Of a stretch of DNA of 64,000 bases, positions 15,420 through 63,340 are shown piece after piece (positions within the stretch are counted from its first letter, which is position 1; each line of letters starts with the position of its first letter). Both the position numbers and the translations under genes were made by a program. The notes beneath the pieces were generated by a model. The model saw only the letters and a program-made list of their open reading frames with translations, made no database searches and was not told the origin of the DNA. Source of the DNA: Saccostrea echinata. Lineage: Eukaryota. Where the stretch lies: contig NW_026889771.1 of the NCBI RefSeq assembly GCF_033153115.1, positions 7,936,001 to 8,000,000 of the forward strand, in the 5' to 3' direction.

Positions 15420-16640
15420 AGTGAAATATGATAACGATAACGAACAGTATTTAATCTCGAAAGTCCAATGAAACGATACAAATTTCGAGCAGACCGGTGG
15501 GATCAGGTGCCATGGAGGAGTGCGCATCCCCTGCCGACCGGTCATACTCGCCGTGTGCTCCTTGTCATGATTGGAAAAAAAACGGAAAAATCCGTAGACA
15601 GTTCAGTGTATAAATAATGGCCTAACAATTAATATGAAAAACTTTAGCCAGCATTCGACTCAATGATAGGTTGTATGTGCTGACAAGATCATTGTATCGA
15701 CCATAAAACTTGCAAAATGATGACTTCAAACGAGACTGTTGATATTCTTGTTTCATCAACTTGTTCGTCAATAGCTTGCCTCGTTTGAGAAATTGTTCAT
15801 ACGTAGAGCATGCTCTTGCATATCGAATCAACTGAGAGACATACATGTAAACCCCATATGCAAGTGAAACTTGCTACATAAGTAAGGGAAGTTGAAGTCA
15901 TCACGTTTATCATAAAGCTTTGTTGTTATGTTACCATTAAAGTCTTTTTCTGGTAAAATATCTAAATATGAAACAGATGTGTCAGACTCTGTGGTATCTT
16001 TTATTTCAAGCTCACTGGGATATATCGAGTCGACATATGAATGGAAGTAACTATTGTTAATTGATAATACGTCGTCGATATATCGAAATGTCGAGTTGAA
16101 GGCCACAGCAAGTATTTTCTTCTTCTCATGTAGAAGTTTTTGAATAAATTATGCTTCATATGAATACAAAAATGGTTTTTATTTTAGTGAGGAGTAAAGA
16201 AAGAGCTTGGTAGTATATTTACTGGAAATCCGCTATGTATCTTTGTTTCTAAGGAATTTTATGAAGTTTAGGAATCAACTAAGGGTATGGTAATTCAAAT
16301 TCATTTTGATTGTTGGGAATACTAAAAATATCTAAAACGGACACATGATTTTGAAGAATTTCCTCCTTAGAAAGGGGGCTAATGGTGTAAGTAGGATTGC
16401 CACCTGCAGAATTAAATCCTAGTTCCTCTAAAATACAATTCAAATCATGAGCCTTACAAACAAAGACTATATTGTTACCAGCTTTGTCAGCTTGGACCAG
16501 TATATACTGATATTCTGAATTATTAAAGACAGAAGGATAAATAGTTTGAATTATTAAAGACGGAAGGACAAGTATTTTTCATACAGCCCCTCCATCGCTT
16601 AATGCGAGATTTCCACGAGTTATTTTCAGTTTTCTTTTCA
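15420..16640 (-). mobile_element. Naiad PLE, deleted copy with RT C-terminus and 3' tail
   Basis: ORFs 15828-16106 (FRYIDDVLSINN, LYDKRDDF) and 15622-15846 (YVSQLIRYARAC...KFYGRY); hairpin at 15496-15552. Confidence 0.85.
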
Positions 16641-24097: not shown

Positions 24098-24542
24098 TCA
24101 TAATTCATCATGTTTTACTTGGTACTGCTTCAAGTCCCTGTCTTTCAGAATGTCTACAAAGTGTTTCTTCAGCACAGACTGAGAGAGTCTCTCATGTGTG
24201 TGAGAAAACAACAGTTTCTGAAGAAGACTAGCTTTCCAGACCTTTCTTTGTACAGTCCTGTACCTCACCCACAGGGACCTTAGGCCCCCCTCTACCACAA
24301 CCCTCCCTTGAGCTCTCCTCTGAAGCAGAAGGTTAAGCCTTCTCTTGATGTTGCGTTTCCTCGCTCTAAGGTGCGTCATGGCACGTACGACCTGCCTCCT
24401 GTTATGACTGACACAAGTTTTACTGCAAATGTCCACTACTGTGTCCGTTTTGACTTCACTAGTGGCATGAGATAAAATGAACTTGATCAGGTTGGGTAGT
24501 GTCCTGGAGACATTGGATGGAAATATCACACTGTCTTCCTTC
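24098..24542 (-). CDS. TXNDC11: TXNDC11 exon 14 (terminal; coiled-coil-like region and HDEL)
   Basis: RKEDSVIFPSNVSRTLPNLIKFILSHA...QVKHDEL-stop. Confidence 0.93.
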
Positions 24543-33500: not shown

Positions 33501-36500
33501 ATCATCATGTGACCTCGTATCACAGGACTGCTTGGGACTTTCTGAACGCAGGTGGCGCTCTAATGCACTCTCTGTATAATTCTGAATAAAATTTGCTGCA
33601 AAATAATAAAATATACTGTATGTTTCATAAATGGCACTGTCATAGTATAAGTTGAGTAAATTCAAAGTGAGATTTATAGTAATTATAGGGTACTTTTGGA
33701 AGGGGAAATGATGAGTAAAACTAATGCAAGTAACCTTCAAAATTACAAATGCAATAAAACAAAACTACTAATTAAATTACTAAATAATAGACTTACCTAA
33801 GTTTTTTCTAGAGAAAGATTCCCTGAGAATAAAATTAGCTTCATTCTGAAAGTGAGGGATTTACACATTACAACCTCTGAACACAATTGTTATTTCTTAC
33901 ATAAAATCATGAACATCCAGCAAAGTCATTAATTAAAACTTAAAAATGACATATATGTTTATATTTACCTTTTTATCAATAATTATCACAAAAGGCTTCT
34001 GTATTGCAACAGATCTGAGAACATTTAGTTTCTCTAATAAAGCTGAATTTAATGACGTGTCTAAGAAATACAGACTTAAGGTTCTGTTTGTCCTGCAAGC
34101 AGAACCAGTAAAATTCACAGGGATAAAACTGGCCTCAAAGTCTCGGATAAACTGGCTTGGCTTTAATAAATTCTGAGTCTTTTGCAGAGTCAATTTCCTG
34201 CATATATTTTTCTTCAGTGAGGATTTACTTTGGCGAACAAAATTGTCATTGCTTCTTCTTGATGAAATGGAAGCACACGATTTATAAGATATATCTATTT
34301 TGCATTCTCTGCAACACAATGTTCTGTATTCGTTGGTATTATAATTATCTAAAGCATCTAAACAGAATGGCGCCTGGATGCGGCTACCAAACACTGCATC
34401 CTCTGCAAACAACAAAGATGGCCCCAGGTTACAAGACTGGGGCAAAGCTGGAGTCAATTTTTTCTCCATGTATCGGCAGAAATCACAAATTTTCTTGGAA
34501 TTATGTAGGTTGTTGTCTGCTCCTACAAGTGACACACAACAGTTCCTGTCAGGATAAGAAAACTGCTTTTCCTGGACCTCGTAGAAGTTTTTACAGAGTT
34601 TCTGTTGGTCTGCGTAACTCTGGAAAACATGGGCTCTGTCCCTCATACTCTGTCGTAGAAAGAACTCCAGGTAGGGTACCTCATGACAATAATGGTACAG
34701 CAGGCCTACTTCCCTCACCTGTAAAAAGGATCTACCATTTAGAAAGAAACTTACAATGATGTAATAGAATAACAATACTACAGTGTATCTCTTTCATAAT
34801 AAGATTCATTCCTTAATCAAACAAAATCATTTAAGACCTAATTCAGAAAACATATTATGGATATATGTATTAAACTGAGAACAAATTCAGAGAATTTAGT
34901 TTACCATATTCAGGTAGTAGTTGGTAGGGTGTACATGATTAACAGGAGCAAACACCAATAAAGCTGGTCTCTTATCAATGGCTGTGGACAGCTCTAGACT
35001 TTTGTGTCCAGGCAAATTCAGCCACTGGACAATAGGCTGTAAAGACACACGAATAGAAATCATAATAAAGTCTTCCTCTTCCTTAAATATTATTTAGGAA
35101 TGACTCTAATTCTTGGCCAAATTATTCGAGTATAACCTGGTTTGGGTCAGTTTACGCTTTATAATCTGCAAAGCGAATTATAAAACAGCGTAAACTGACC
35201 CAAACCAGGTTATACTCGAATAATTTGGCCAAGAATTTGAGTCATTCCTTATAATTTAATTTTAAAATCATTAAATAACTATGGGTGTAAAATTTCGTTG
35301 TTTTTTATTAGTTCAAATTTGCTGCTCAATAATACAAACGTAGTAACGGAAGTAACGGAAGTGATGGGAAGCAAGGGGAGGTAAAAACTGATACATAGGC
35401 CTAGCAGCCTTGTTGTTTGTTTACATGTGGTAAGATCGAATTATTGTTTGAAGTTAAAGGTACATTTATTAAATCTGGAATTTTCCATGAATCCCGAGGA
35501 CTGGAAATGAGAGGATTGTATGGATACAGATGATTCAGCTGGTTGTCAGGGGGGTGTGTCCCCATACCAAACCAGGTTATACAGAAATAATTTGTGTTCC
35601 TTTTTGGATATTAACCAATCAGGGGCTAGAATACAAACAAAATTAAATTATTTTAAAATAGCAAGCATTTCTCTAATTAATAATTGTACATCTCAAGCTT
35701 GTATACTTAAATATTATGAGACTGACATATATAGCTTACAAATATTTCTATCACATAAAATTTTGATACAGATTTAGTATATTTTAAAGTAATAAATTCT
35801 AGAGATAATCTTAAAGATGATTACAATTTAAGCAATCTGTATTGTGAATCAGCTTTGAAAAAAATCCTTTCTGACTTTGACCTTTAACATGTGTTAAGCA
35901 ATGGACCTAAGCTTCTGAGCATACAAATACTCACTGAAAGGCAATTAATGTATTTCAAAGTTCAGCAGACTTATTAATAAATACATGTGTTAGATGAAAA
36001 TGGTAATCATGCATTACTTTCAAACTCATATTTATGTTTAAGTGCATAAATTCAAGGTGCATGTTTTTTCACCTTCTAATAATTCTGCAAATTAATAATT
36101 ACAAAATAACAAACATTTAAATTTCCTTAATAGTAGCTATTAAAGCTTTAGAAATGTTTGAATAAATTTTCTGGTGAAGATGTGATGGTGAAATGATTTG
36201 ATACTGTTTTCATTTCTAACATTTGCAGAGATTTAAAAACTATATGTACCAGTATTCATAGAATTCATGACTGCTCAATTTGAATGCTTTCATCATAAAA
36301 TTTTATGCAACTTCATTAAGGCAATTTTAAGGAAAGTGAATTCAATTTTCATAGTATAAAAATTCATAAAATATGGCTAATGGGTGTAATAACCAGCAAT
36401 CTAACAATGTTATGCTACTGAAACCTAACTCCTTTGAGAATCCATTTACGTGGCATACATAATACCCTGGTGATTATCAGTACTGAACAACACTAACAGC

Positions 36501-39500
36501 ACCTTTAACGTGCCATGAAGAATTTATTTCTATGGTAGTAAAACTTTATATGGCATCAGCTGCATTAAATTTCTAATAACTAGATCTCATCTGAGTGAAA
36601 AATCTTAGAAATGATAGAGTCATAAAAGTTTTCATGCTTCTGATACACATCTATAAGAAAAACAGGGGTCCATGGGCCACAATGCTAGCCCGAGTCATAA
36701 ATTCTACAGTGACTTGAAACTTTTGACCTCAGTTGTGCTTACTATTGCCCTTGTAATTACATGTATGACTTCAACAAATATTAAATCTACATTCTAACTC
36801 ACTATAGAATATTTGCCTATAAATATGATCTTAATCTTACTAAATTTTTAATTTCAAATTATAACCTGGTATATAATATACCTGATAAAAAAACTATTCT
36901 CTTATTTTCCCTATATTAACCAAAGGGATCATTACAGTAAAACATACCAAATAAAAGTTATTGTTAAGTTACATTTAAATGTATATATCTCTTAGTACAC
37001 AGAGACCACTGGTCTTTGTTTGATACATGATACTGTAAACACCATCTTGTCAGCTGTCAAAATCAAACTTTTAAGACAAAAGTGGAATGGTATGTTGAAT
37101 ATTAAAGTGATCAGAATCAAAAAGTAGAACTGTTGAAATATCTGGATTTTATTGTATTTAAAAATATAAATTAAATTAATCTTATTAAGAGGCAGTCTAC
37201 GAGAAAACCATGCAGAGAGCTATTCATGTTAGGTTCTCAATTTCACAACCCATTATCATATTTATTCATTTCAATGTATTGTAAGACTTTTCTGCAAATT
37301 TGGTCAAAATCTGGTAATTAGCACAGTGTACATGAGTGCCATCTATGTTTGTCATTGGCAAATTGCTATAATGTTATAAAACACATGAAAAAATACCAGT
37401 TTCCTTTATAGCTTTACTTCATAATAAACAAATTTCAGGGAAAATATATGGGATATTTGTACATATATGAACAGTGTTAATCATTTCCATTATAAAAATT
37501 CTAAATTTATTAAACTTTTAATGAGAGACAACTCTAACAATCTCATGATGTTCTAAAAATAGATTTTTCTTGCCTTAATTCTAAGAGCCATAATACCTGA
37601 TAGACAGTTGAGAGAGAAATTTCTTTTTGTTCCTTAAAAGGTCATTACATAGTGTTTCTATCAGAAATTGGAATTTGTCGGATAATAAAATATAACGAAG
37701 TTATGATGAAAACAAACTTACACCATTTTTTAAAATCAACAAGGCCAATTTTAGCCCATATTGGACCTAGTTCTTTTATTTTACAAATCTAAATATTTGC
37801 TACATATTTTGTAAAATGAACATAATAATCTACACTTAGTATAAAAATATCAATTTTGCCTCAATTACGACATTCTGCAAAGATTATACCATTCATACAT
37901 TTATTTTCAAACCTCATAGGGGTGGGAGGGAGTTTTTTCCCATTATAACATAATGTAGACATCTGTATTTACATGTACCTCACACAATATCTTCAGGAAG
38001 TAGAGTTCAAGGAGAGAAGGAGAGTATGATAAAATAATGAGCTCCATAGGCATGTATGTTATGGGGAAATTTGGGTTGAAGTCTACTTATGAGACCAATA
38101 ATCCTTTGAGGTGCATAGCAACATGGTGGCTAAAGCATAGCAACAATTTACTTGCTAAAAATTTAAAACAAGAATAAGTACAAGTTCCTTACCATAAAAC
38201 TACTAGTATTGTTTGCATCCTCAAAGACAACATGACTTTATATGTGAATGGATTGACTTAACCACCATGTTATAAATTCAAGTAATACTATATGTAATAT
38301 GACTGTACATCTATGAAATCTGTAAAGAGAGCTTTATAAAGAGAAAAAAAAAATACATTCAAAATTCTACACTAAAATTCTGCAAAGTTATTTTACCCCA
38401 GTACATGTACCATGTTTCTGAAGAAATAAAATATCCAGAAAAATGTACTTTCATTCTTTTGAAAAAATTACAGTATATCAATGAAATAACATCTCAACAA
38501 AATGATATATTCTGTGGAAACCCTAGAAGTTCATCCCAACAAAAATGAATGTAATGAAGTACATGTAATTACATATGGGGAATACACATCTGAGTATTAT
38601 TATAAAAACATTATTCAAGTAAATCTAAAAAAAACATTGAACTCAAACAATGAGTTCCTGTGACAGCCATTTATTCCGCTAGTTCATTGGCTATTGCTTG
38701 GACACTATCAAATTGTTCCGCTGCCTGAAGACTATTTATGATATTTTCTAGTATTTCGACATCCTGCTCATCGTTGACCTCCTCCAACTTCAAGCGCTTT
38801 GTTTGGAAAGTACAGCTTAGCATTCTTTGTTTTTTTTAAAACAAAACCTGCAAAAACACCTCTGATTTGTTGGTGTGTCAACCATTCACTTGGGCTAAAA
38901 CGTCTCTCCCCATCAAAGTCTTTTTCAGATCGGATCTGTCTGCTTACAGTGTATGGATTGGCTTTTCGGCCGGTTTTCTCTCCTTCATCATAAATCTCAA
39001 GCAAATACTTTTTCACCTTACTTGAAAACCTTGTATTTTTCTTCCGCTGCTTCAGTGCATATGCCAGTGTCTCATACGAGACTTCTTCAGCAGGGTTCAT
39101 ATCACATGTTTCCACACTGACACTGGGCTGAGTAGATCTGATTTTGGTGCATTCTTCTGCCCACATTCTCTTTGAAGTGTCCAGTATGTTGTCGGTCTTT
39201 TCATTGTCATAAACATGATTACCAACTGCTAGGTGGTTAAGCAGTTGATTCTCCTTTCTGAACTCTTTTACACAGTCAGGATCACAACATGACAGTAAAC
39301 GACTTGTAGATTTTCTTTGTCTTGTCTTCTCAGAGGGTGGCTTTGGGTTTGCAACAATCTGTGTGCATAAAAAAAATGAACTAAAGTAAGAAAAAAAAAC
39401 ATATGTGTTAAATTCATTAATAGAATAATACCAAGATTGTGCTATATGAAGCAAATGAAAATTACAACATACCACAGCTTCTGGGATGTCCACCATATTT

Positions 39501-42500
39501 TTTGTAACTGCTTCAAGCTTTTCAGATGAAATAAATTGCTCTCCAAAACCATAAGACTTGAATGCCAAAATACCATAGTCTTTAAAGATGAAGTTGTTGT
39601 ACTGACTTATGGCAATCTTCAGTTGACCAGATAGTATAGGCTGGGCGTTCATGTCCACATCAATTATGGAAGTTAATGTATTCCGGACTCCCCCATGACT
39701 CTCAAGTGCATCTTTCATCTCGTACACATTTGTAACATCATTGCCTTCATTGATGTAATTCAAGATGTGCATTCTACAACTTCCTGTGCGAGAGTCGCAC
39801 AAAACCTTTTCTGACTGGGCTTCACTGAAATTATATTCTCTGATTGTTACATGCATGTTGTTCCTTAATTTCCAGAGGCATGTCAGAAGGGGAAGACAGT
39901 GATAGCATCCTGCATTATCAGAGCGCAAATAAACTTCTTTCAAATGTGGGTGACTCTCATGAAGCATCTGCAAAATGTGGATCAGGATTTTTGAAACTGT
40001 GAACCAACCCTGTGTGCCATGTTGAAGAAGGTGCACATAAGAAAGGATGTCCACTGATTCATCATCTTCTGCATCATTTCTTCGTAAGAGTACACATGAA
40101 ACATGCCAACTGATCCCTTGCTTTCCATACCATTCACTCCGAGTTTCTCTAAATGTCTGTGGCAAATATTTCATAGCCCAGTCAATAATTATGAGTCCTT
40201 GATCATCTTTAAGATTGTTCAGAATATCACTTTTACAGGCATCCTGATTAACAGTTCGTATGCAGTGATCTCGTCAGTTCACAATTTTCTCACACGATAA
40301 CTCTACATCATGTTGAATTTCCTCTTTAACACTTGCATCACAGTGAACATCTTCAAGGCACTGAGCAATGTCAGTGGTGACATTTTTTATTTGTCGGCAA
40401 GATATGCAGGTCTCTGAATGTTGATGGTCACATGGCAAATCAGATAGAGCATATTGCATGCAATGTTCAATGCATGTGCTTTTTGTGCTGAGGTGTGTTT
40501 TGAATTCGTTCTTCAGATGCAGTTTTACAGCTTGTAATTGATTCTTGAAGTCTTTCACTTTTCCGTCATGAAGTCCTACTTCAGATAACTTTTCTAATGC
40601 TTTTTCAATGGTGGAAATTCCCAATTCCCCTTCACTCGCAAGGTTGTCAATACCATGTAATGACTTCAACTGTGAAGCTGCACAAACTTTCACTATCTTG
40701 TATAGAGTTGCCCTTGATGGTGGTGCAATTTCATTGTTTTGACAATATGCCATGTATGCATTGATGAGTCTTGATGCAATCATTGTGCGAATTACTTTAG
40801 GTACTTTGACCTCCAATCCTGATGAGAGTTTCAAGTGTTTGGAACCAAAACTCACTGTGTGGAGGTACATAGGAGCTGATATGAATTCTACGAAGTGCTG
40901 GATTCTCCCTTTTGAAATTCTTATCCGTACAATTTTAGGTGGTGCAACATAATGTCCAGGCCAGAAGGTTGCTGCATGTTTTCTTGCCACATCTATATGG
41001 TGGATTGTCAAACCCTCAATCATCCTCAACAGTATGGATTTGCTATATTTACTTGCAATTAGGGATAGAATCTGAGTGCGAGTTGTATGATCTGTAGCCT
41101 TCTTGTATGCCTCAATTACTGTGTCTGTCATTGAATCTTGATGGAATATGGCTGAGCCTTTGTAGCTGTTGATCACTTCATCAAGGAGTTGTTGACTCTG
41201 GCCAGGAGCAATGATGTCACAAATATATTCAAAAGCAGCTTTTGCATGACGCACATAATATGCTCTTGTTGAGTACTGCAAGTCCTGCAGAGGTTGGCTT
41301 ACTTGGGAGCGTAGGCATTCCAAGTGGCCGTTTGTCAACATTTGCATTGCATCATTGTACTTCTCCCTTAAAGACTTTTGCATATCTGACCAATTTGATG
41401 CTGCAGTGGACTGAGACAAATGCAGAGATTCACTATCTGACATCATGATATCTGTAAAAAATAAAAATATAATTATTTACATACAACTGATGAAGGGTGA
41501 TGAGTATAAGAGAAAAAGAAATACTAGTAGCACTTATTTGGGGATCAAGTTTGTAAAACTTTGCAGTACGTTTTTTGCATAAATTTCTTTGACATATATG
41601 AAATGATGTTAACAGTTCTTACTAGGAATGTCTAAATTTTTTTTTCATTCTTGCACCATTGTACAGATATGAAAACAGACATAATCAGTCAGTAAATTAT
41701 AAATATATTGATATCCAAACATTCTAATATTGTGTGGATTTATTTTTTTTTTCTCTCAAATTTTTATGGTTTCTTTGGTTGGACCAGGGCTAAATTGGGT
41801 ATCAAATTTTGCATATTAAGGCATGTATAAAGGAGTAAAATATTCTTTAAAACTTTTTTTTTCCAGAACATCAAGGCCTTTTTAGTCATATTCATTTTGA
41901 AGCATCCCATTATGTATGGATTCTTATTTAATCACAAACTGTTTGAGACTAAGGTGTGGTCACAATCTGGGGGTCAAAATTGGTAAATGGGGATAAAGAA
42001 GGAAATACATGTACAAGTATTTAAACACCTTCAGAACATGGCCAAAGGTAAATCAGGTGTCTTGTGGACTATGGGCTTTATTCTTAGTAGTAGCTCAGAA
42101 AAATTCGCTTGAGCTTTAGAGCTTTTCATCATAAGGATTTCAAATAAATTTATTTTAATAAGGTCACTTAAAATGGTTTCAGTATAGGAGAAATTTCATT
42201 ACAATGTCCATTGTAAAATAAACCCGGTTATTTGTATATGCTGACCTTGGTCAAGTTCATTTGTCTGAGAGACACGTGATACTACATCAGTTTCTTCAGC
42301 AGGGTTAACATTATTGTTAACATCTGAAAATGTAGAGCATTCATCTTATGAAGTATTTAAATTTTATATATAATTAATAATGATTACAAAAACAAGTAGC
42401 CCATGGGCCTTAACGGTCACCTGAATATAATACAAAATTGCAAATGATCCATAGAAGTATAGAGTAAAAGAAAATAAACATAAAGATGAAACTATCTTGT

Positions 42501-45500
42501 CAAAATGGAAGACAATTAGGATGACCAGGAATCAACAAAATAATTAATCTGGTGCTCAGTAACAAATCTGAAGTAGATCTATTTTCTTGCCTGTACTTGC
42601 TCCCACGTTACAATCACCATTCTGACTAAACAAAACAGTAGTGCTTAAGCACTTTCAGAAAACTAATCACTCTTTCTCATCATAACCATGTACTAAATAT
42701 GTTTGCTTAATACTCATGGGCAAAAAAATATGAGCTATGAATTTCATAATTTTGGAAGAGGTATCCTTGCTCATCATAACCATGCAAGGTTTACCATTTG
42801 ATAAATTTCAATGTATGACAAATTTAGCCCCTCTCTGGGCCTTGTACTTTGACCTGGGATACATGAATTTCATAATTTTTGTAGTGTGCTAACTATTCAT
42901 TATTATCATACAAACAATATGCCTGCTAGAAAAAGATTTTTGTTCCCACTTTTGTGAAAGCAAGGAGAAATTAAATCTCAATCTTTTGTGTGTCTGTCAA
43001 AAGAGAAGCTGAAAATACTTGAAAACTAGAAATATGTCCATAGGACATGAATGCCCCGCCGAGGGTATATTAATAATGCAACATTTTAACACAATTTGAG
43101 AAAAGTAAGGTCAAGGTCAAAGGAAAGGTCAAGGTGAAAAAATATTGATGCAGTTAAATAGCTTACATCAGTATGTATCAGCATATGAAGTTTGACACTA
43201 ATTTAAGAAAAGTGAGGTCAAGGTCAAAAGAAAGGTCAAGGTCAATAATTGTTGTTGCAGTTGAAAAGGTTACATCAGTATGTATTAGCATATGAAGTTT
43301 GATAAAAATATTATGAATGGTTTCTTTAAAACTGAGCTAAACACTTATTTAAGAAAAGTGAGGTCAAGGTCAAAGGAAAGGTCAAGGTCAAAATATATTG
43401 ATGCAGTTGAATAGCTATCATCAGTATGTATGAGCATATGAAGTATGACACTAATTTAAGAAAAGTGAGGTCAAAGGAAAGGTCAAGGTCAAAAATGTTG
43501 ATGCAGTTGAATAGCTCTCATCAGTATGTATCAGCATATGAAGTTTGATAACACTATCTTGAATGACATCTTTAAAACTGAGCTAAAAACTTATTTAGGA
43601 AAAGTGAAGTCAAGGTCAAAGGAAAGGTCAAGGTAAAAAAAAACTGATGCAGTTGAATAGCTCTCATCAGTATGTATCAGCATATGAAGTTTGTTAAAAA
43701 TATCTTGAATGGTTTCATTAAAACTGAGCTAAACACTAATTTAAGAAAAGTGAGGTCAAGGTCTAAAGAAAGGTCAAGGTCAAAAAATGTTGATGCAGTT
43801 GAATAGCTTACATCAGTATGTATCAACATATGAAGTTTGATTACACCATCTTGAATGGTATTTTTAAAACTGAGCTAAACACTAATTTAAGAAAAGTGAG
43901 ATCAAGGTCAAAGGAAAGGTCAAGGTCAAAAAATGTTGATGCAGTTGCATAGCTCTCATCAATATCCATCAGCATATGAAGGTTGATAAAAATATCTTGG
44001 ACAGTTTCTTTGAAAGTGTGACGGAAGGACAGAAGGACAGAAGACGGACATGACAAACACTATATGCCCCGGCCATATTCATTGCGGGGCATAAAAATTG
44101 CCAATGCAATACAAAGGAAGGACAACAGACAAAAATTGATAGCAAAATGTCACCTGAAAAACTCAGGTGACCTAAAGATATAAATGTTTTTTAATTAAAA
44201 ATTTTGTATAAATAGTCTGAAAGTTTAAGGAAACTATTCACAAACAACATACCATTGACTTCAGTGCAGTCTCTCAGATTAGGTGAAGGTAATGAGGCAC
44301 TAGTTGACATGGTCAGCTGCTCAACTCTGTCTAAGTGAAAAGGAAATATATGGAGATAACAAACAGTATTCAAGCTCAAAAGTCCATTCAAACAATACAA
44401 ATCAGGAGCGGTGCAAACATGGACCTGTATATAATGAGGGACACATCCCATATTACTTGTCTTGTTTGGAATGCATAATTTGGTCAATCCATAACCCCCC
44501 AACTCCAACCACCAAAAACAGAAAAAAAAACATGGATCCATCCCTAATGCCAATAAACTGGAAATATTTATGATATACTAATAAAAGTAATTACCTTTTA
44601 TTTCTTCCACAACTTGTTCACCAAGACCGAGATCTGCTTTGTGTTTAGAAACACATGTTCTGCATACAGCTTAAAATAAGACATTTAAAAAGAATTATTA
44701 ATATGTGTCCTCATGAATAAGGTTTTCTGTTTTCTTTATGAATACTTGGTCAGTTTTGCTATGGTTTCTAGCTAATTAAGACCTAGCTTCATGACTGATT
44801 TACATACATGGGTGCTATTACAAAAGAAATCATGATCAGTAAATGTAAGTGTTTCTAACATCTTGCTTATACTTCTGAAAAGTTTAATGTACACAATAAT
44901 TTGCAAAAAAACATATCTGGGTCTTAGTCGTTAAACATATTTTGGTCTCAGTTTTAAATTCTTTTGTAAAATGGGGTCTTGGCTCAGTATGTGCTTTTGG
45001 TACAAAATATCTTATCAACCTGACCTCATACATGTATTCACAAGACCTTACATGTACATGTACTTCAACATCATGACTTACTAGACTTGGCTGACCTCAG
45101 TAACATTTCACATATAATTAATATGAATCAAATAAATACATACATGGTTAGGCCATCTTTAAAAAATTGTTTGGTTGCCCTCTCCCAACCGACTGACTAA
45201 AAATAGCCTCCTTAAATTACGTTTTCAACCTGAGCCAAAATATTGTTTATCTATCGATCAAGACAGTAACCATATATTTTGTTTATCCTGCAATGTATTT
45301 TTACATCTGACCTCCAAAACGAGCTTCATTAAACCGATTTAGGCACGTTTTTACAGTTGAAACTAAAACGCCACATGGCATAAACATTGCAATATTTTTG
45401 ACGTCACAATGCTTTTAAAATGTGGGAATACATGTAAAAGGCTTTTTTAGGGCATTGACCGAATATTGTTTTACTTTACTAGGTTACCTTGATTAGGTCA

Positions 45501-48500
45501 ATGCAAGCGGCGTACCAGGGCTCTCATACCCACTTTTCTGTCCTGGGGTCTGGGTCATTAAAACTTGGAAAATTAGTGACAATTCGGGGAATACTAATCT
45601 ATGTGTTCATTCTACGTTCTACAGTAAAACACATCATATTTTGTGTTTCTGGCGTTGAGTTGTTTTCAGCTGGTTTTGTTGCCATAAATTTTCAACTAAA
45701 CAGGTCCAGCACAATCTCTTGATTAAGCTATATAGCTTGAAATAGCTATATAGCTTTATTAAGCTATTCAAAATAGCTTGATAAAGCTATTTATATGCAG
45801 GTTTTCACAAAAATGTTATTTGTACAAAATAGACAAAAAGTCGCAAGTATTTGACTATTCATATATGTAATATGGGTTATCAAATCAACAACCCAAATCA
45901 AAGATAGTTCTAACATTGCAGCATTTGAATACTTTAAAGCAAAAGATGAATTTCCATTGTCTGGGTAACTGTACACTACCTTGTGTGCGTTGAGGCATGG
46001 ATAAGTATGATTGCTTCTCATTGTACTGAATTATTACCAATCAATTATCTTGTTGACCATAATTGGCCTCCTTTATAATTTCATTGAAGAGGTAACTGTA
46101 TCAATTGCTTTATATAGCCCCCAAAACTTTTAGAACTTTGAGTACAAAGTCTCTTAAGGAGACGCAATTTGATGAGTGATTTTTACATGCATTATTTTCA
46201 TAAGAGTTCAAGGTTGAATATCATCACTGCACCAAGGTGCGACTTTTTGTGCATACTTGGAAAATAACACATTTGAGAAAAAAGTGTGATAAAATAGCTA
46301 AATCAAGCTATTCTGAATAGCTTAATAAAGCTATATAGCTAAATCAAGCTATATAGCTTAATCAAGAGATTGTGCCGGACCTGCTAAATAAGTAGCAAGT
46401 TTAGGTATATATATTCAATATTTGTCCTTGGGAAAATTTAAAACATAAATGTAATAATAATAATAATAATTCAAGGACATTCAGTACATGTGACATTTGA
46501 AAAAAATGTAGATTTGGACAAATTTCTTACTTACCTTCGCCTATCGGGACTGACAGCTGTAGACGCAACCAAAGTTCCCGACTCAAAACTGGTGTGATGC
46601 CTCTGTCTGGTTTTGTTTTAGATTTTCCATGAAAGGGATGTACACAAGATCGCTTGCTCCGTTTCCAGTACAGGCCAAGCGCGTCTCTGTGTTTATGGCA
46701 AATTTTCTTGTCTAGTTGTGCTAACGTGATCACATTAACACCTGCTCTGCATAGTATTAGATAACTTTCGGGCAGATCTATACCCTTAGAGTTCGAATTT
46801 AGGTATCTGAGATGGTGAAAGGTTTGTTTTACACAGTCTTTCAAATAATATATCGCCTTTTTTTCACAACCTTCACCAAAATCACACACCCCAGACGACA
46901 TCGCTGCCATTTTCCCTCCATGTAAACAATGGCTTTTTTCCCTTCATGCACTGAAGAGTTCGAAAAGATCGATAATTCCGAAAAAAAATTAAAGAGTTTC
47001 AAAGGTGTATTTCTTGAGACTTATCGTAAATCCAAGAAATTCCTTGAAAGATAATGTGTAAAAATTCACGTTAAATCAGATAAATGAATGTAAACAAAAG
47101 TTCACCCGTTGTATCAAACACAGCACTGTGTCTCCCATAGACAAATAAATAGTCAAGTAGATTTTCTTTAATAAAACCTTTTAAAGGATGACTGCACTTA
47201 ACGCCGGGTTTTGGGTCTTTTTCGATCGCTTCTGTTGCTTTTATATCATTATCTTATTTCATTTCTATATATTTATGAAAGAATCCTGTCAATTTCGAGC
47301 CGAATTTAAATATTAAAATGATCTTGGACTGTGATACAATAAAATGATTCTATGTTTTCTGTCCTTACTCTTTCCAAATATAGAAAATTTACACTTACCT
47401 GCCCTTGATTAAACATTAGGTATGCATGAGAGGTGGAGCTAATATTGTAAGAATGGGTCTAAAATTAGACTAGATAAATAACAATGACATGTATTAAAAA
47501 AAATACGAGATCACTCTTTCCCATTCCCTCTTTATTCTGTATGGCACAAGTACACTATGTTCAGAGGTTTCAAAAACGAAATTAACAATATGAGCGAGGT
47601 CCATGTAAGTAAAGAATCTTTTAAATCAATGCCTAACAATTTAACGTGTTCGAGCACTTTGTCCTAGTTAGCACAAAACATGCTACTTTACAAGTCACGT
47701 GACGGAATTTAGTATTCACAGACTTACCTGAGGTAAGAAATCACGTGGTGAATTATAATATTCAACATGATACAGCCCTTGGTTACAATAGAGAGAGCGA
47801 ATGTAAGAAGAAGCAGTTTTTTCTCGTTTAAACCATGAGCGCATGTTTGTCTATTAATCTCCTTTTGACACAACATTGTTAATACAAATATACAACTACT
47901 GTTAAACGGAGAACAATAGACAAACATGCGCTGACTATGTATAAAGTCAGTGAAAAAGTGGGCGTCCTCATTATCGAACGGAGATTCAAGATATTGTGAT
48001 GACCCCCGCCTTAGAAAACAGCTTCGTACTTCGTAAATACGCACTTTTATTTAATGTAATTACATAAAGTTGTAGATTAGATGTTGACCATTCGTGCAAT
48101 TAAAAGAAAAATGCTTGTTTTGAAAGTTTATTTTGTCACAATTTTCGCATGTCCTTAAGTGCAGTCATCCTTTCCCAAATGAATAAGATCTGGTAAATAA
48201 AATTTAACTTCATACAAAAACTATACTTATTAATTCTACATAGAAAACAAAAATATCCAAAATCATTGTTTTATTTGACATTTTAAAGGGCTTATAAAAG
48301 TGCTTAATTTTCCTTGAAATCCCAGCCCACCAGAGAGCTATAAATAGATTCAGGGCTATCTCAAATAGGAGAAAGCATTTGTTGAAAATTTTTTCACAAC
48401 AGATAATAAGGTCCATTTTCTTTAAAATGATGTAGTTAAAATAATCTTTTTTTAATGTGACTTGTGTAACATATTTTTATTTTTGCATGATTTTCTCGTA

Positions 48501-51500
48501 GACTCGCTCTTAAGAAATAAGGTATCATCTTTAAACATCTATCGGGATATAAATACGGGTTGGTCACGAGATCAAATTCCATGAAGCCCAAAGGGCTTTA
48601 TGGTAAATTTGATATCATACCAACCCGTATTTATATCCCGATAGATGTTTTAAAATGATACCTTATTACTTACATTTACCTTTGTGATCTATTCATATTT
48701 TAGCCTGATTATAACCTTTAACACATGAAATGTTTTATTTTTTCAAATTCAACCGCACAAGTTTGATCTATCAATTGCACGTCAACCCTTTATGACGTCA
48801 CTGAGAAATTACGTCGAACGTTTATGATGAGAGGAACTGATGTTTATACGGAAATAGATACACATCGCTTTCAATAGTGTTATTTAAAGGAAAACATTTG
48901 CAAATGTAAATATATGGGGATAAAACTCAGGGTGGGCAGACTGTGAAGCTAGAAATTCTTATGCTTCTGTAATCTTGGATTCAGGGACTTACTAAGTACA
49001 TGTACTTGTATAGTTTTTCATCTGTCTGTCTGTTTGTTGATCTCTTTGTTGGCAAACACTTTAACCTTGCCTGTAACATTTGAATAGTTGGTGCCAGGAC
49101 TTTCATATTTCACATGTGTATTTGAAAACAAGTCTTAACCATGTTAACATCTTGACATCGGTGTTTAGGACTACTAGGTCAACTATAAACTACAACATGA
49201 CCACTCTTGCTCATTTTGATAATTATCCCATCCTTTCCTGACAAGTGTTTTGTCATGGATGAAGTAAATTTCAGTTGTGATGTTTACATGGTTTACTGTT
49301 ATCATTGTCATTCTTTTGATTTTGATGCCATTTTTTGTATAAAACCCTTTCTTACATACATGTACATGTATATTAACCAGACCCGAACCAAAATCTGGAA
49401 AAATAGAACTGAAACCGAACTGAACAACTTGGACCATGGTTTTCAGTTATTTCGGGGAACTGTGATAGCCCTAGCACCAAAATTTCTGACTTCAAGACCT
49501 TGTCCTACAAGTTTGACCTATTTTTGTGCAACTTCAACCAACTTAACCTTGCATGGCCATAATTTCTGAACAGTTGGTGCTAGGGCTTTCATACTTCATA
49601 TATCTATTCTTTGTGACAACACCTTTCTTTGGGTACAAACATTTTTGACCTTGTGGCCTTGACCCTGGAGTTTGACCTACTATTGAAAAACAAATCTTGG
49701 ACAAAACTTCTGAATGGTTGGTGTTAGGATTTCCATATTTTACAAAAGTATTTATAATGACAAGATCTTTCTTTGGGCATCATTATTTTTGACCTCATGA
49801 CTTTGATCTTGGAGTTTGAACTACTTTTGAAAAAACTTTTACCCTTTTACCACTGCCATATATGGGCATCAGTATTTCACAGACATTCTTGTTTTCTTGC
49901 AGCCTATTTATGACATTCCCCCATCCCTGCCTATGTCAAAGGGGACACCAGAGAGTAATTGTAAATTGTTTATAGTCCAAGACAAAACAAAAGCAGTTCA
50001 ATCACCATAAAACAGGTCCCTTGAAACATTGTGTCAAACAACTCCCAGAAACCACAGGCAGAAGTAGAACTATAATTTGGGGGTGTAATGGCTACACTGA
50101 AGCTTGGGTAAATCAATTATCAGAGCCGATGTTGAATCACTGTTATTATCCAAGGAAATATTATTTCCCATTTGTCTACCCCCATCAAGAACATTATGTA
50201 TCCGAAATAAGTTACATGGAAGATTTTATTGAACATTTATATCCACAAATCTCATCAATGATCAATCATGCATTATGATTTCAAAAAGTAAACAATGGTT
50301 AAGATATTAGTTAATTTTGGCTAAATTTGCTTTTTTTTTTATATGACAAACAACATATATAGTAAATTGGAAGCTTTTATAGGGACAGCTGGTGTTTCTT
50401 TGATAAAATCATACTCAATGGTTCTATCTGCATCCATACAGGTTAACTGTTCCACTACAGGGTTCAACATCAACGGTTGTCCTATTGCCCGGGCAAGTAA
50501 ATTCTCAGTTTCAGCAAGTGAAACTGCTGATGTACTTGTCTGATCAGACAAGTGAAATTTTCTCTTAGAAAGTATATTGTTATTTAGCTTACATTAGTTA
50601 ATAAATAAAAAATAAATTTAATTCTTGATTTCTGATGGGTATGTGACTGACATTGGTTTTGCATAGGGATGGGTATCGCCAAAAATTTCATATCGCGATA
50701 TATCAATATTTTTTCCCAAAAATATCATGATATTTTTACAAGCAATTTTTACAATGATTTTATATATTATATATATCATATTCGTAATTTTTCCAAAAAA
50801 TATGCTGCAAAAACATAATTTCACTTTTTTCATTATTTTTCATTTGCATAATATCAAGTAATTTTGGATGCTAGGATGCCGTTCTTTTACATTTTTCAAC
50901 ATTTTTTTACACTACCTGTAATTTGAAAGATTGAACAAATAAATGAATAATTTCTGGAATTTATAACTATGTACCTAAATATTGGTATTTTAGTCTCCGT
51001 ATCACGATACATATCACGCAATTAAAAATCACAATATACCGGTATACCTATAAAATTGCACATCCCTAGTTTTGCATTCAGAATTCCTAGAGCTTCTAGA
51101 TTATACTGTTCATTTAAAAATAAATTTTATTCTATTTTCTTTTGTGGTAAATTCTGTCAATTTTTAAAAACTTTGTTCCCTACTTATAAGGAGATAAGAT
51201 TATCATTTATTTACTCACAGAATGTAAGTAAACACAAGTATCCTGATCAAGATATGTATGTTTTGTAGCAGATGTCTTTGTTTAGCATTGCTTCACAGTT
51301 ATCTCTGAAAATCAATATTTGCAAAAGGATCCTTCCAAAAATAATTTTTAAAAAATATGTACTTCATGATAAAGGAAACATGTGGTTATTACTGCATGGC
51401 AGTTTATGTTTACAGTTAAATTGACGACAGTGGTATACATTTATGTACAAATGTAGCATCAAATTTTTTTAAGGTACCCCAACTTGCCAAATAGACAGTA

Positions 51501-54500
51501 GTGTATCTGGTCCCACTTTTTACATTTAGAAATGAAGTTTTCTTCTTCCTTTCTGGTAATTTTGGGCAACCAAGTTTTGGCATTGGGACAAGTCAAAGTT
51601 TGAGATCACTTGTCTTTTGGGCAAGTGAATCTGAAAGTGAATGATATCCCTTCACTACTGTAACCAGTGATAATTACCAAGTATATGTTGATCTCCTGAG
51701 TTTCATAAGTTTCTTTGCCTATAACCAAATTGACCTCACCAGGAACTGGAACTCTGGACTCATGATGCCAATTTTTTTTTTCAATTTTAAGCATACCTCT
51801 TTCCAGCATTGTTCATAAGGGCATATGATGATGAATTTGCCACTGGGTTTAACAAACACAAATTTTCTCATACCTATGTAGTACAGGAGAAGTTTTGAGT
51901 AAATACCAGGTGAGTTGTTGCGACAACAAAAAGCAGACACAGCTAGAAGGACAGAATTTTTAATTTTGAAACACGAGGATTTTTTGCAAGGCATGTTGGC
52001 TCTTTTGTTAATTGACTATCAATGATTAGTACAATGATTATGTGTGATTCATGACCCCAAATGACAAGTTGCTAGAGCACACCAGCATACCACAAGAACC
52101 CGAAGCACTAACCTGCTCTTTGTGAAGAAGTGCCCACTTCCAAATATTGGAACTTGTCAGATTACTGGTCCTTGGATACAACTAGAAATGAAAAACAGGA
52201 AATAATTTCAATACTTAACAATAAAATGAAAGTAGTTCTTATTGGGAAAATAAATATCTCATCTTGAAATGCAAGCACCAAGTACTGATATATTTTAAGC
52301 ATACTTTAGTTGTTAAAATGTAGTAAAACTAGTAAATGAAAACTTGCTTTAATAGCCAAAAAATTCCATATTCTGGTGATCGTCTTCCAATATGTGATTC
52401 AATGAGAGTCACTCACAAANNNNNNNNNNNNNNNNNNNNNNNNNNNNNNNNNNNNNNNNNNNNNNNNNNNNNNNNNNNNNNNNNNNNNNNNNNNNNNNNN
52501 NNNNNNNNNNNNNNNNNNNNNNNNNNNNNNNNNNNNNNNNNNNNNNNNNNNNNNNNNNNNNNNNNNNNNNACAAATCCTATTACGAGTACCCCCACTCAG
52601 GGACTGTTAATGAAAGTGATTTTATGTGACGGGTGATCTTTAAATTTACAAATATTTCTCATTTAAATTTGTTTTCAGTTTTAAAAGTAGTCATCCCCCC
52701 TCCTCCAAATTTTGGTTCTAGAATGAAGATAGAGTTATCTCTCTTTGACTGTGATACTAATCGAGACAATATGATATGCTATATTTTGACTGTGATACTG
52801 ATATGCTATATTTTGACTGTGATACTGATATGCTATATTTTGACTGTGATACTGATATGCTATATTCACCAGTGATTCATTGAAGGTCCTGATCATGATA
52901 ATCTCCTCTTTATCTGTCAAACCAAGCTCATCTGCCAAGTACTGCTGGGTTATTACACCACATCTAATTGGCTGGAGTGGGTCTGGAATCAAAAGAGTTT
53001 TTAAAAAGTTTTTTTTTTTAACTTATGCTTTTTTTCATTTTCCATAGGGATTTGAAAAACACAAATGACAAATGTACTGATACATCAGTAAATGGATGCA
53101 TCCTCTGACAGGGTTCACATTCTGATAAAATTACTGCATAAAAATGTTAAATAATGGAACACATTAAGATTTTAATGTCTGAGGGTTGTCCCAGAATTCT
53201 GTAGACAAGCGTTGTTTTATAGTAACCCAGTGTCATATGCATGTATTAATGAAACTTTAGAAATAAATATACTAAGAAAAACTAACAAATTTATTTAAAT
53301 TCTGAATAATGACACAGATTTAACCTATTTAAATGAGTTAATCTAATGTCTGATGTAAAGATGTGGCCCAGTCCCAAATATCGCTACAAAAAAATCAGTA
53401 TATGAATTAAAAAACCTTGCAAAAAAGTTATTTCTAATACAGAATTTAGATTTTTTCAAATGAAACAGTTTCACAGCTTTAATCCAATTTAATGGCATAT
53501 GGCCCATATGCCTAAAAAAAAAGAATTTTAAAACATTTTATATGCAACAGTTTGACACCGTAATTGTTGAAAAATGGCAGATGCATTGATACAGGTGGCA
53601 CACTTGTAATTAATAAAATGTTGTTCGGACCTTGAATTCATTTCAACAGGAACACTCACAATGCCACTAATGTCCGGAACACATAAAAATGAAATTCAGT
53701 CCTAAGTGTTTATATTACAAGAGTTTTTAGTAGTAAATGAAGGAAAAAAGCTAAAAAACAGACCAGTTGAAAGAAATGGAAATCGCTTTGTCAAAGCGAC
53801 AATGTCTATAAGGAAGACAAACAAAAACAAAATCAGTAATATAAGAGAAGGTTTTTTTATGAATTATTTCGTCTATCGAATACAGGTTTATATTTTGTTT
53901 ATATATTTAAATATTTTATCTTATCATAACAATTAAAATATTTCACATATATATTAAAACTCATTTTGATAAATAAAGAAATGTCAATCTAGTAACTGGC
54001 GTATTTTCCAAAAAAAATCACCACTAGTAAAGTTTATGTATCTTTTGACATAGGAGATTGTGCCTAGTTGTAGGACAGGGTAACACTTAAATTCTAATTA
54101 CTCAAGGATTTTCTACGTAATCAAGTTAAAACTTTACAATTCATCAACCAAGAACACCCTGAATACATCTAGAAAATTACATAAAGATACATTAATTTTT
54201 GTAAAAGATATGAGTTCAGTCTACGTAATTTTGGGACAACCCTCATACATAGTTTAGCATTTTTGATAAAGCACCATCTATTCTTCATATCAAATAATAA
54301 TTTTTGATTTCTGGATAATGACACAGATTTATCCTATTTAAATGAATTAGTCTAATGTAGCATTTTAGTTACAATTCAAATGCCAATCAAATCATTCTTA
54401 ATAAGTTAGAAGCATTAATTATACAACTGGCAGGGCTGTTACAGCTTTTTCAAACTGAAGGATCAATCATCTAAAACTTGAGGAAAGGGACAGCAAAACA

Positions 54501-62644: not shown

Positions 62645-63075
62645 ATTTCAGGTGACTTTCAAATATAGATTCAAGTTTCTTATATTTGCTAACAAGATCA
62701 TTATAACGACCATGAATTTACGAAATGCTGACTTTAACGGTTATTGAAATCCCTGTAACATGAACTTATCTGTCAGTGGTCTGCCTCTGTTTAAAAATTA
62801 ATCGTCCTCGGAGCATGCTCTTGAGTATCGAATAAGTTGGGAGATGTTAACATCATAATCAGCTGATAGCGGGATATAAATGAAAAAAAATTGACTTTGG
62901 AAAGTTGAATTTATCGCGTTTGTCATGCAATTTAGTTGTTAGTTGGCCTTTATCGTCCATAGTTAGTAAAACATCCCAATATGAAACAGGTGTAGCAGAC
63001 TCTGTGGTGTCTTTTATTTGAAGTTCACTGCAATATATTGAATCGACATACATTGTATGAATGAAAGTAACTAAT
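62645..63075 (-). mobile_element. Naiad RT C-terminal fragment
   Basis: ORF 62859-63053 YVDSIYCSELQIKDTTES...LTTKLHDKRD. Confidence 0.8.
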
Positions 63076-63096
63076 GTTAATCTCCATGATCGGAGA

Positions 63097-63340
63097 ATCT
63101 TCGGATCAAACTGCGGCCGCGACTGACCTCCGCCAAGCGGTCGGCACTTTGTAGTGAATGTTGCGGGTCTTTCGGATGAGACCTTAAAAACCGATGCCTC
63201 GTGTCAGGCGTTGGCACGATAAAGATCCTTCGGTGCTCAATGGCCCTGAGTGCCGAGTAAAGGTCTAAATTTGATGCCCTTCACCTTTATATGGTGACGT
63301 CTCTACATGTATTTATGAGTGAAAAAATCTCGAACAGGAC
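63097..63340 (+). mobile_element. Bivalve SINE body with Deu/Nin- and Meta-like central domains (BivaMD-like)
   Basis: GTCTTTCGGATGAGACCTTAAAAACCGA..., TGGCACGATAAAGATCC, and 3' GAGTGAAAAAATCTCGA. Confidence 0.65.

Follow-up and report, generated by a model that had tools for sequence, protein, structure and literature searches.

What kind of element occupies an intron of a TXNDC11-like gene in the bivalve Saccostrea echinata, and can it still move by its own means? The question arises in a stretch of 64,000 nucleotides (assembly GCF_033153115.1, contig NW_026889771.1, positions 7,936,001 to 8,000,000 of the forward strand; hereafter the window), in which an 11.3-kb element (positions 37189–48509) is flanked by TTAA on each side and has GAG…CTC ends. 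An earlier note, made from the letters alone, had described it as a Sola3-like transposon with a spliced transposase gene and unusually short terminal inverted repeats (TIRs). The results support a mobile, TTAA-specific, short-TIR, intron-bearing, Sola-type transposon of a bivalve with a DDD transposase (three aspartates in the catalytic core), as the note had proposed; TIR-bearing sister copies and empty sites are both found. The copy in the window is dead: it has real, complete ends but a broken enzyme gene. We regard it as very probable that the element is a complete but inactivated TTAA-specific Sola3-like transposon whose gene would specify a DDD transposase some 1090 residues long, likely moved by cut-and-paste by the enzyme of another element.

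Ends, target site, and dispersed copies

The TIRs are 26 bp long and match at 23 of 26 positions, with no meaningful similarity inward of them; here, and for the TTAA duplication and the GAG…CTC ends, the earlier reading holds. The two ends differ from each other (GAGGCA versus GAGCGA), and the difference is fixed in all complete copies (6/6). The pattern formed by TTAA and the TIR has 12 matches in the genome (923 Mb) and none with the reversed control, so that it is not a product of chance. The note had also called the element complete at 11.3 kb; ends and length stand, and about 2.7 kb of that length consists of nested inserts (see below).

Six copies possess both ends and sit at unrelated TTAA sites with unrelated flanks, at identities of 97.7%–99.6%; the absence of TIR-bearing copies and of any empty site, which the note had named as evidence against itself, is not what the genome displays. 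The other loci of this family (family A) are C5a, which shares a flank with the complete copy C5b and lacks the other end, and one 1.8-kb fragment. Empty sites with a single TTAA occur for three copies: C47, C5b (L107), and C27 (L146). These three copies lie in other repeats, of which the empty sites are paralogues. For C27, the empty site is one of 19 paralogues, at the junction of two copies of another repeat, and the other 18 run into other DNA.

At the window site, positions 48511–48672 form the hairpin start of a high-copy repeat, and the element entered its first TTAA. In all 11 paralogues of that repeat that were examined, the site has one TTAA and is free of the element. C27, too, entered at a TTAA, at the end of a different repeat.

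The location in a host intron, also claimed in the note, is borne out by the TXNDC11-like protein P0121 (labelled Saccostrea echinata and 100% identical to a window exon), whose residue 288 falls at 52113 and residue 289 at 35036, on either side of the element. The host gene spans window positions 24101–58926 on the minus strand, with 14 coding blocks mapped and HDEL at its end.

The transposase gene and its inactivation

The gene is made of six minus-strand exons (Table 1), with AG/GT at 5/5 introns (all GT-AG) and consistent phases, as had been described. Exons 1, 2, 5, and 6 have counterparts, in the same order, in the Mytilus protein P0008 (1119 aa). The joint of intron 5 is exact, since one contig in run X5 (presumed RNA) links 39358 to 39473. 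For four further contigs (runs X1 and X2, presumed RNA), the match ends exactly at 39358, 39473, or 46535; one of these contigs has 269 extra letters, a length that would fit, by length alone, exons 2–4 plus 38 bases. The gene is spliced and apparently transcribed, and the product of its six exons would be a DDD transposase about 1090 residues long. No second gene is present among the open reading frames (ORFs) of the element.

The earlier description missed the death of this copy. A TGA stands at codon 595, where C27, C5a, and C5b have TGG. An extra A near 38837 (a +1 frameshift), absent from C27, C30, C1, C5a, and C5b, shifts the last codons, and the window frame stops early at 38768. Finally, the conserved SGKDLCD is changed to SEKVLCD, and the glycine lost is present in 106/107 homologues. 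The length of 1060–1090 codons given in the note is that of read-through frames, since these end at 1058 codons in the window and at 1090 in a sister copy; the frame itself is interrupted. All seven family-A copies examined are defective, through stops, frameshifts, deletions, or inserts. Between the window copy and C27, there are 12 synonymous and 20 non-synonymous changes; changes between copies are mostly non-synonymous, as expected of decaying copies.

Table 1. Positions in the window of the element, its parts, its nested inserts, and the host intron
Feature	Position	Strand	Remark
Host intron, ~17 kb (limits to nearest codon), TXNDC11-like gene	35037..52112	-	Same strand as transposase
TTAA target-site duplication, 3′ side of gene	37185..37188	.	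Sister copies: empty sites with one TTAA
26-bp TIR, starts GAGGCA	37189..37214	+	Identical end in 6/6 complete copies
Exon 6, coding part: C2H2-like motif, helix-turn-helix-like domain, acidic tail	38671..39358	-	
Exon 5, 1979 bp: Cys/His cluster and putative DDD core (DWAMK, SDNAGCYH, SEAQS..CD)	39473..41451	-	
Premature TGA, codon 595, upstream of all three putative catalytic aspartates	40274..40276	-	Also in C47 and C30
Exon 4, 78 bp, low complexity	42246..42323	-	Splice signals and phase only
Nested 1067-bp repeat, internal 100–146-bp tandem array, T-rich site	43026..44092	.	Not in C1, C30
Exon 3, 78 bp, low complexity	44253..44330	-	Splice signals and phase only
Exon 2, 75 bp, CxxC	44595..44669	-	Matches Mytilus P0008 residues 117–150
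Nested miniature inverted-repeat transposable element (MITE), CAGG...CCTG ends, 5-bp duplication CTAAA	45701..46383	.	Common to C47 only
Exon 1, 376 bp, Cys/His-rich N-terminal domain	46535..46910	-	Match of two contigs ends at 46535
Nested 985-bp Spy-like element, GG...CC ends, between AAA and TTT, no duplication	47186..48170	.	Private to window copy
26-bp TIR, starts GAGCGA, 5′ end of gene	48484..48509	-	
TTAA target-site duplication	48510..48513	.	Doubles as start of unrelated high-copy repeat

A search with the core region returns 199 homologues among 4884 candidates, those named coming from oysters, mussels, pearl oyster, cnidarians, and Branchiostoma; among the 120 listed, none bears the name transposase. 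A profile search gives 2433 cluster representatives at E ≤ 1e-30, and the Atlas neighbours include, as a lead, clusters with DUF7869 on 12% of their members. Residue D644 is present in 107/107 aligned homologues, and D738 and D779 in 106/107; the three likely form the catalytic triad. In exon 1, invariant Cys and His residues are found in 7/7 aligned copies of related families, all ending at the same PIG/PVG motif. Pfam gives nothing above cut-off for four exons or for 21 aligned proteins, save one weak SAP match. Mytilus trossulus LOC134698600 (P0008), which also matches exons 1, 2, and 6 of the window gene, and Saccostrea cucullata LOC134276582 (P0007) are 55% identical over the core; both are annotated as uncharacterised proteins and were compared by protein alone. 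Relatives of the element are indeed annotated as uncharacterised host genes, as the note had foreseen: the RefSeq proteins P0091 and P0082 map at 97%–100% onto elements on C49 and C8.

The predicted fold of the homologue P0008 has an RNase H-type DDE/D core. In the AlphaFold model (mean pLDDT 71, with the N-terminal 240 residues unresolved), the matches to integrase cores have Z 11.1 (rmsd 7.3, 148 aligned) and Z 10.1 (rmsd 3.0, 139 aligned), and that to Mos1 has Z 9.1 (rmsd 3.2, 165 aligned).

On this basis, the spliced transposase would bind the inner part of each TIR, probably via the C-terminal helix-turn-helix and/or the N-terminal Cys/His domain. By analogy with the DDE/D family, the three aspartates would hold metal ions and cut the element ends, which would be joined to TTAA with a 4-base stagger, and host repair would yield the TTAA duplication. 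In all likelihood, the mechanism itself is ordinary cut-and-paste, and the window copy is now non-autonomous.

How, then, did a dead copy reach its present site? The TGA, the frameshift, the damaged motif, and the MITE are all common to the window copy and C47, and yet the flanks of the two differ. One or the other has therefore probably moved since it was inactivated, a step that would require a helper enzyme; we infer that the window copy was likely moved in trans by the enzyme of another element. If, instead, it was autonomous at insertion, the lesions shared with C47 would stem from later gene conversion or from assembly errors. The TGA is found in C30 as well, despite the closer kinship of that copy with C1, and this hints at some exchange among copies; on the other side stand four kinds of shared change, distributed over about 7.5 kb and on two contigs, at 99.6% overall identity, and autonomy at insertion seems to us improbable. 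A host gene that was domesticated and kept leftover terminal repeats could also be spliced and transcribed, as this gene apparently is, and could have relatives with host-gene annotations; moreover, the related locus pair C8a/C47b has no TTAA-bounded TIR pair in 20 kb. Given six dispersed TIR-bounded copies, the empty sites, and the lesions in 7/7 copies, the chances of domestication are slight in the extreme, and for the window copy the dispersed copies and the lesions refute it.

Several points weigh against a Sola3-like transposon moved in trans. The empty sites are paralogous repeats (82%–99% alike) and not alleles, and a search with the left flank of the window element found no empty allele of that site. 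Introns 1–4 are not seen as listed joints, and the runs are guessed to be RNA and were available as contigs only. None of the seven family-A copies examined is intact, which leaves no candidate source of the enzyme among them. The fold is that of P0008, a homologue at the 52% level, and not of the window copy; the helix-turn-helix (homeodomain-like) match is weak (P0008 residues 997–1076, Z 7.2, rmsd 2.0, 61 aligned), and Foldseek gives no match at E ≤ 0.001, with argonautes ranked above integrases. Lastly, the comparison with Sola3 is one of general features of the group and not of protein sequences.

Classification and related families

Sola3 elements target TTAA, have GAG…CTC ends, and encode a large transposase with a DDD triad; their hosts are aquatic invertebrates, including cnidarians and Branchiostoma, and their TIRs are of about 400–1100 bp, with an exception in Phytophthora. 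The window element shares the target, the ends, the triad, and the large transposase, and differs in its 26-bp TIRs, its five introns, and relatives that end with ATG, GTG, or GTA. It works like Sola3, and we call it Sola3-like rather than Sola3 because TTAA and GAG are present and the long TIRs are not, the comparison being one of general features. Its GAG…CTC ends recur in C65/C6, whereas four related families differ, so that these termini are not fixed in the lineage; TIRs of 26–29 bp characterize the five related families as well. For Sola3, such TIRs are short, as the note had said. Within the Sola superfamily as outlined in PMC10741241 (DDD transposase, 4-bp duplication, TIRs of 11–1124 bp, usual length 2–9 kb), they are within range, as are the 4-bp duplication (6/6 copies) and the triad in a predicted RNase H fold; the window element is longer, though about 2.7 kb of it is nested inserts.

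Other groups fit less well. Sola2 has the motifs DF(S/A)ENY, SDG...QYKN, and HGK..CDG.GG (PMC3627910, supplementary alignment). The order of the motifs is common to both (by eye: D, then SD, then GK..CD), while the window element has DWAMK, SDNAGCYH, and SGKD.CD in place of the Sola2 motifs, and the Sola2 DFa families duplicate AWWT rather than TTAA. Kolobok and piggyBac, the other TTAA-specific groups, share the duplication, and the GA ends of the window family agree with the 5′-RR termini of Kolobok as given in PMC9587614; the ATG-, GTG-, and GTA-ended relatives, starting with AT or GT, do not. The third catalytic residue would be the D in GK..CD, the Kolobok signature C/DxxH does not follow the second D, a single gene is present where Kolobok has a second protein, and no match to DDE_Tnp_1_7, the piggyBac domain according to PMC5751038, appears in four exons or in the 21 aligned proteins. 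We give membership in either group scarcely any credence.

A separate Sola subgroup, TTAA-specific, with a DDD transposase and related to Sola2 and Sola3 without being Sola3 proper, has more in its favour: the TIRs are of 26–29 bp in six families, four of them have ATG, GTG, or GTA ends, the long TIRs of Sola3 are missing, and the dictyostelid Sola2 proteins DFa-2 and PPa-1 display a similar ILS...A.KH...GPG stretch (by eye). Yet TTAA with GAG in family A and in C65/C6 fits Sola3, as do homologues in cnidarians and Branchiostoma, which are Sola3 hosts, and such a subgroup appears rather unlikely. The bivalve survey in PMC10294476 points the same way, with 64 Sola3 ORFs reported from molluscs; in the accessible part of that survey, which required ORFs of more than 300 residues, Sola3 is not among the curated full-length families. 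No Sola3 reference data turned up in two of the three supplementary files of PMC3985635 or 12 of the 33 of PMC10294476. A literature search, outside Repbase/Dfam and subscription journals, gave no account of Sola3 TIRs or of the anatomy of bivalve Sola3; Repbase may already hold similar oyster families.

Among 11 more distant loci examined in the genome, six have their own TTAA-bounded TIR pair and constitute five further families, with termini ATG (C1), GAG (C65/C6), GTG (C9), and GTA (C1c and, separately, C49). Related elements are spliced and 8–17 kb long, and the six families, including that of the window, have in common an inner TIR motif close to AAA(A/T/C)CATGCA. C54 (one end seen) and C8b, C8a, and C47b (no TIR pair) are not part of this count. 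Nor does C33 count as a family with a GTT terminus, since it is a member of the C49 family, with a GTA 5′ end and no 3′ end. In a quick tree, made without reference Sola proteins and in which the label C33 is wrong, the sister group of the window family consists of the C1 family and Mytilus proteins (SH-aLRT 99), and the termini do not map onto a single clade. Family C9 and L125 yielded no clean empty site with one TTAA.

The TIR core, with up to one mismatch, occurs 174 times in the genome (control 0). Among 30 ends read, 22 are ATG, 2 GTG, and 6 GAG, with TTAA outside in 28/30. The 19 of these elements examined are mostly of 6–8.5 kb, with only scraps of gene, and have TTAA on both sides in 15/19; 18/19 are 98.4% alike at their ends and only 81% like the C1 element. 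These elements (L110–L129, e.g., G000:C9:10404279-10410903) form a young, non-autonomous, ATG-ended family of dozens of copies, for which no closely matching autonomous partner was found. The ATG-ended C1 element (G000:C1:52306328-52318592, L058–L059; 12.3 kb), with a near-identical copy on C84, has open frames in the exons examined (the small middle exons lying outside these) and intact catalytic motifs, and is a candidate active element.

Since the inner motif is conserved and the three bases at the very end differ between families, several of these could be moved by one enzyme. We suggest, tentatively, that bivalves may carry an undescribed intron-bearing Sola3-type clade with TIRs of 26–29 bp, an inner motif kept across transposases 33%–55% identical, and variable termini, the C1 element being perhaps the helper. 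The main lead is this common short TIR core, together with the variable termini and a helper that may be intact, rather than the window copy. Were cross-mobilisation true, the C1 element may serve the dead window family as well as dozens of young 6–8-kb non-autonomous elements, and oysters would have in it a TTAA-specific tool of their own for gene transfer. Sola3 has received little study; spliced elements of 8–17 kb whose ends are of 26 bp are easily overlooked, and they swell gene sets with entries for uncharacterised proteins. Should the group be Sola3, long TIRs and GAG ends are too restrictive as rules, and classifiers that rely on TIRs would assign the ATG-, GTG-, and GTA-ended families wrongly.

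A related transposase gene, close to Saccostrea cucullata P0015, lies in a duplicated block of more than 18 kb (L090–L093; G000:C8:11847072 and C47:39606, the C8a/C47b pair). With no TTAA-bounded TIR pair within 20 kb, this locus pair is possibly domesticated, or part of a larger element.

Nested inserts and other repeats

Three inserts, of about 688, 985, and 1067 bp, are nested in the window element, and some sister copies are without them. The Spy-like element sits upstream of exon 1, and five sister copies have a clean empty site there that reads AAATTT, in agreement with the rule of insertion between AAA and TTT without duplication as stated for Spy in PMC4122938. It is also high-copy in sequencing runs. 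The repeat at 43026–44092 has, in addition, a terminal hairpin, and may resemble the non-autonomous Helentron elements of oysters. The MITE at 45701–46383, with its CAG ends and 5-bp duplication, may resemble the hAT5 type. Outside the element, fragments at window positions 15622–16578 and 62859–63203 have a motif that suggests a putative Penelope-type reverse transcriptase.

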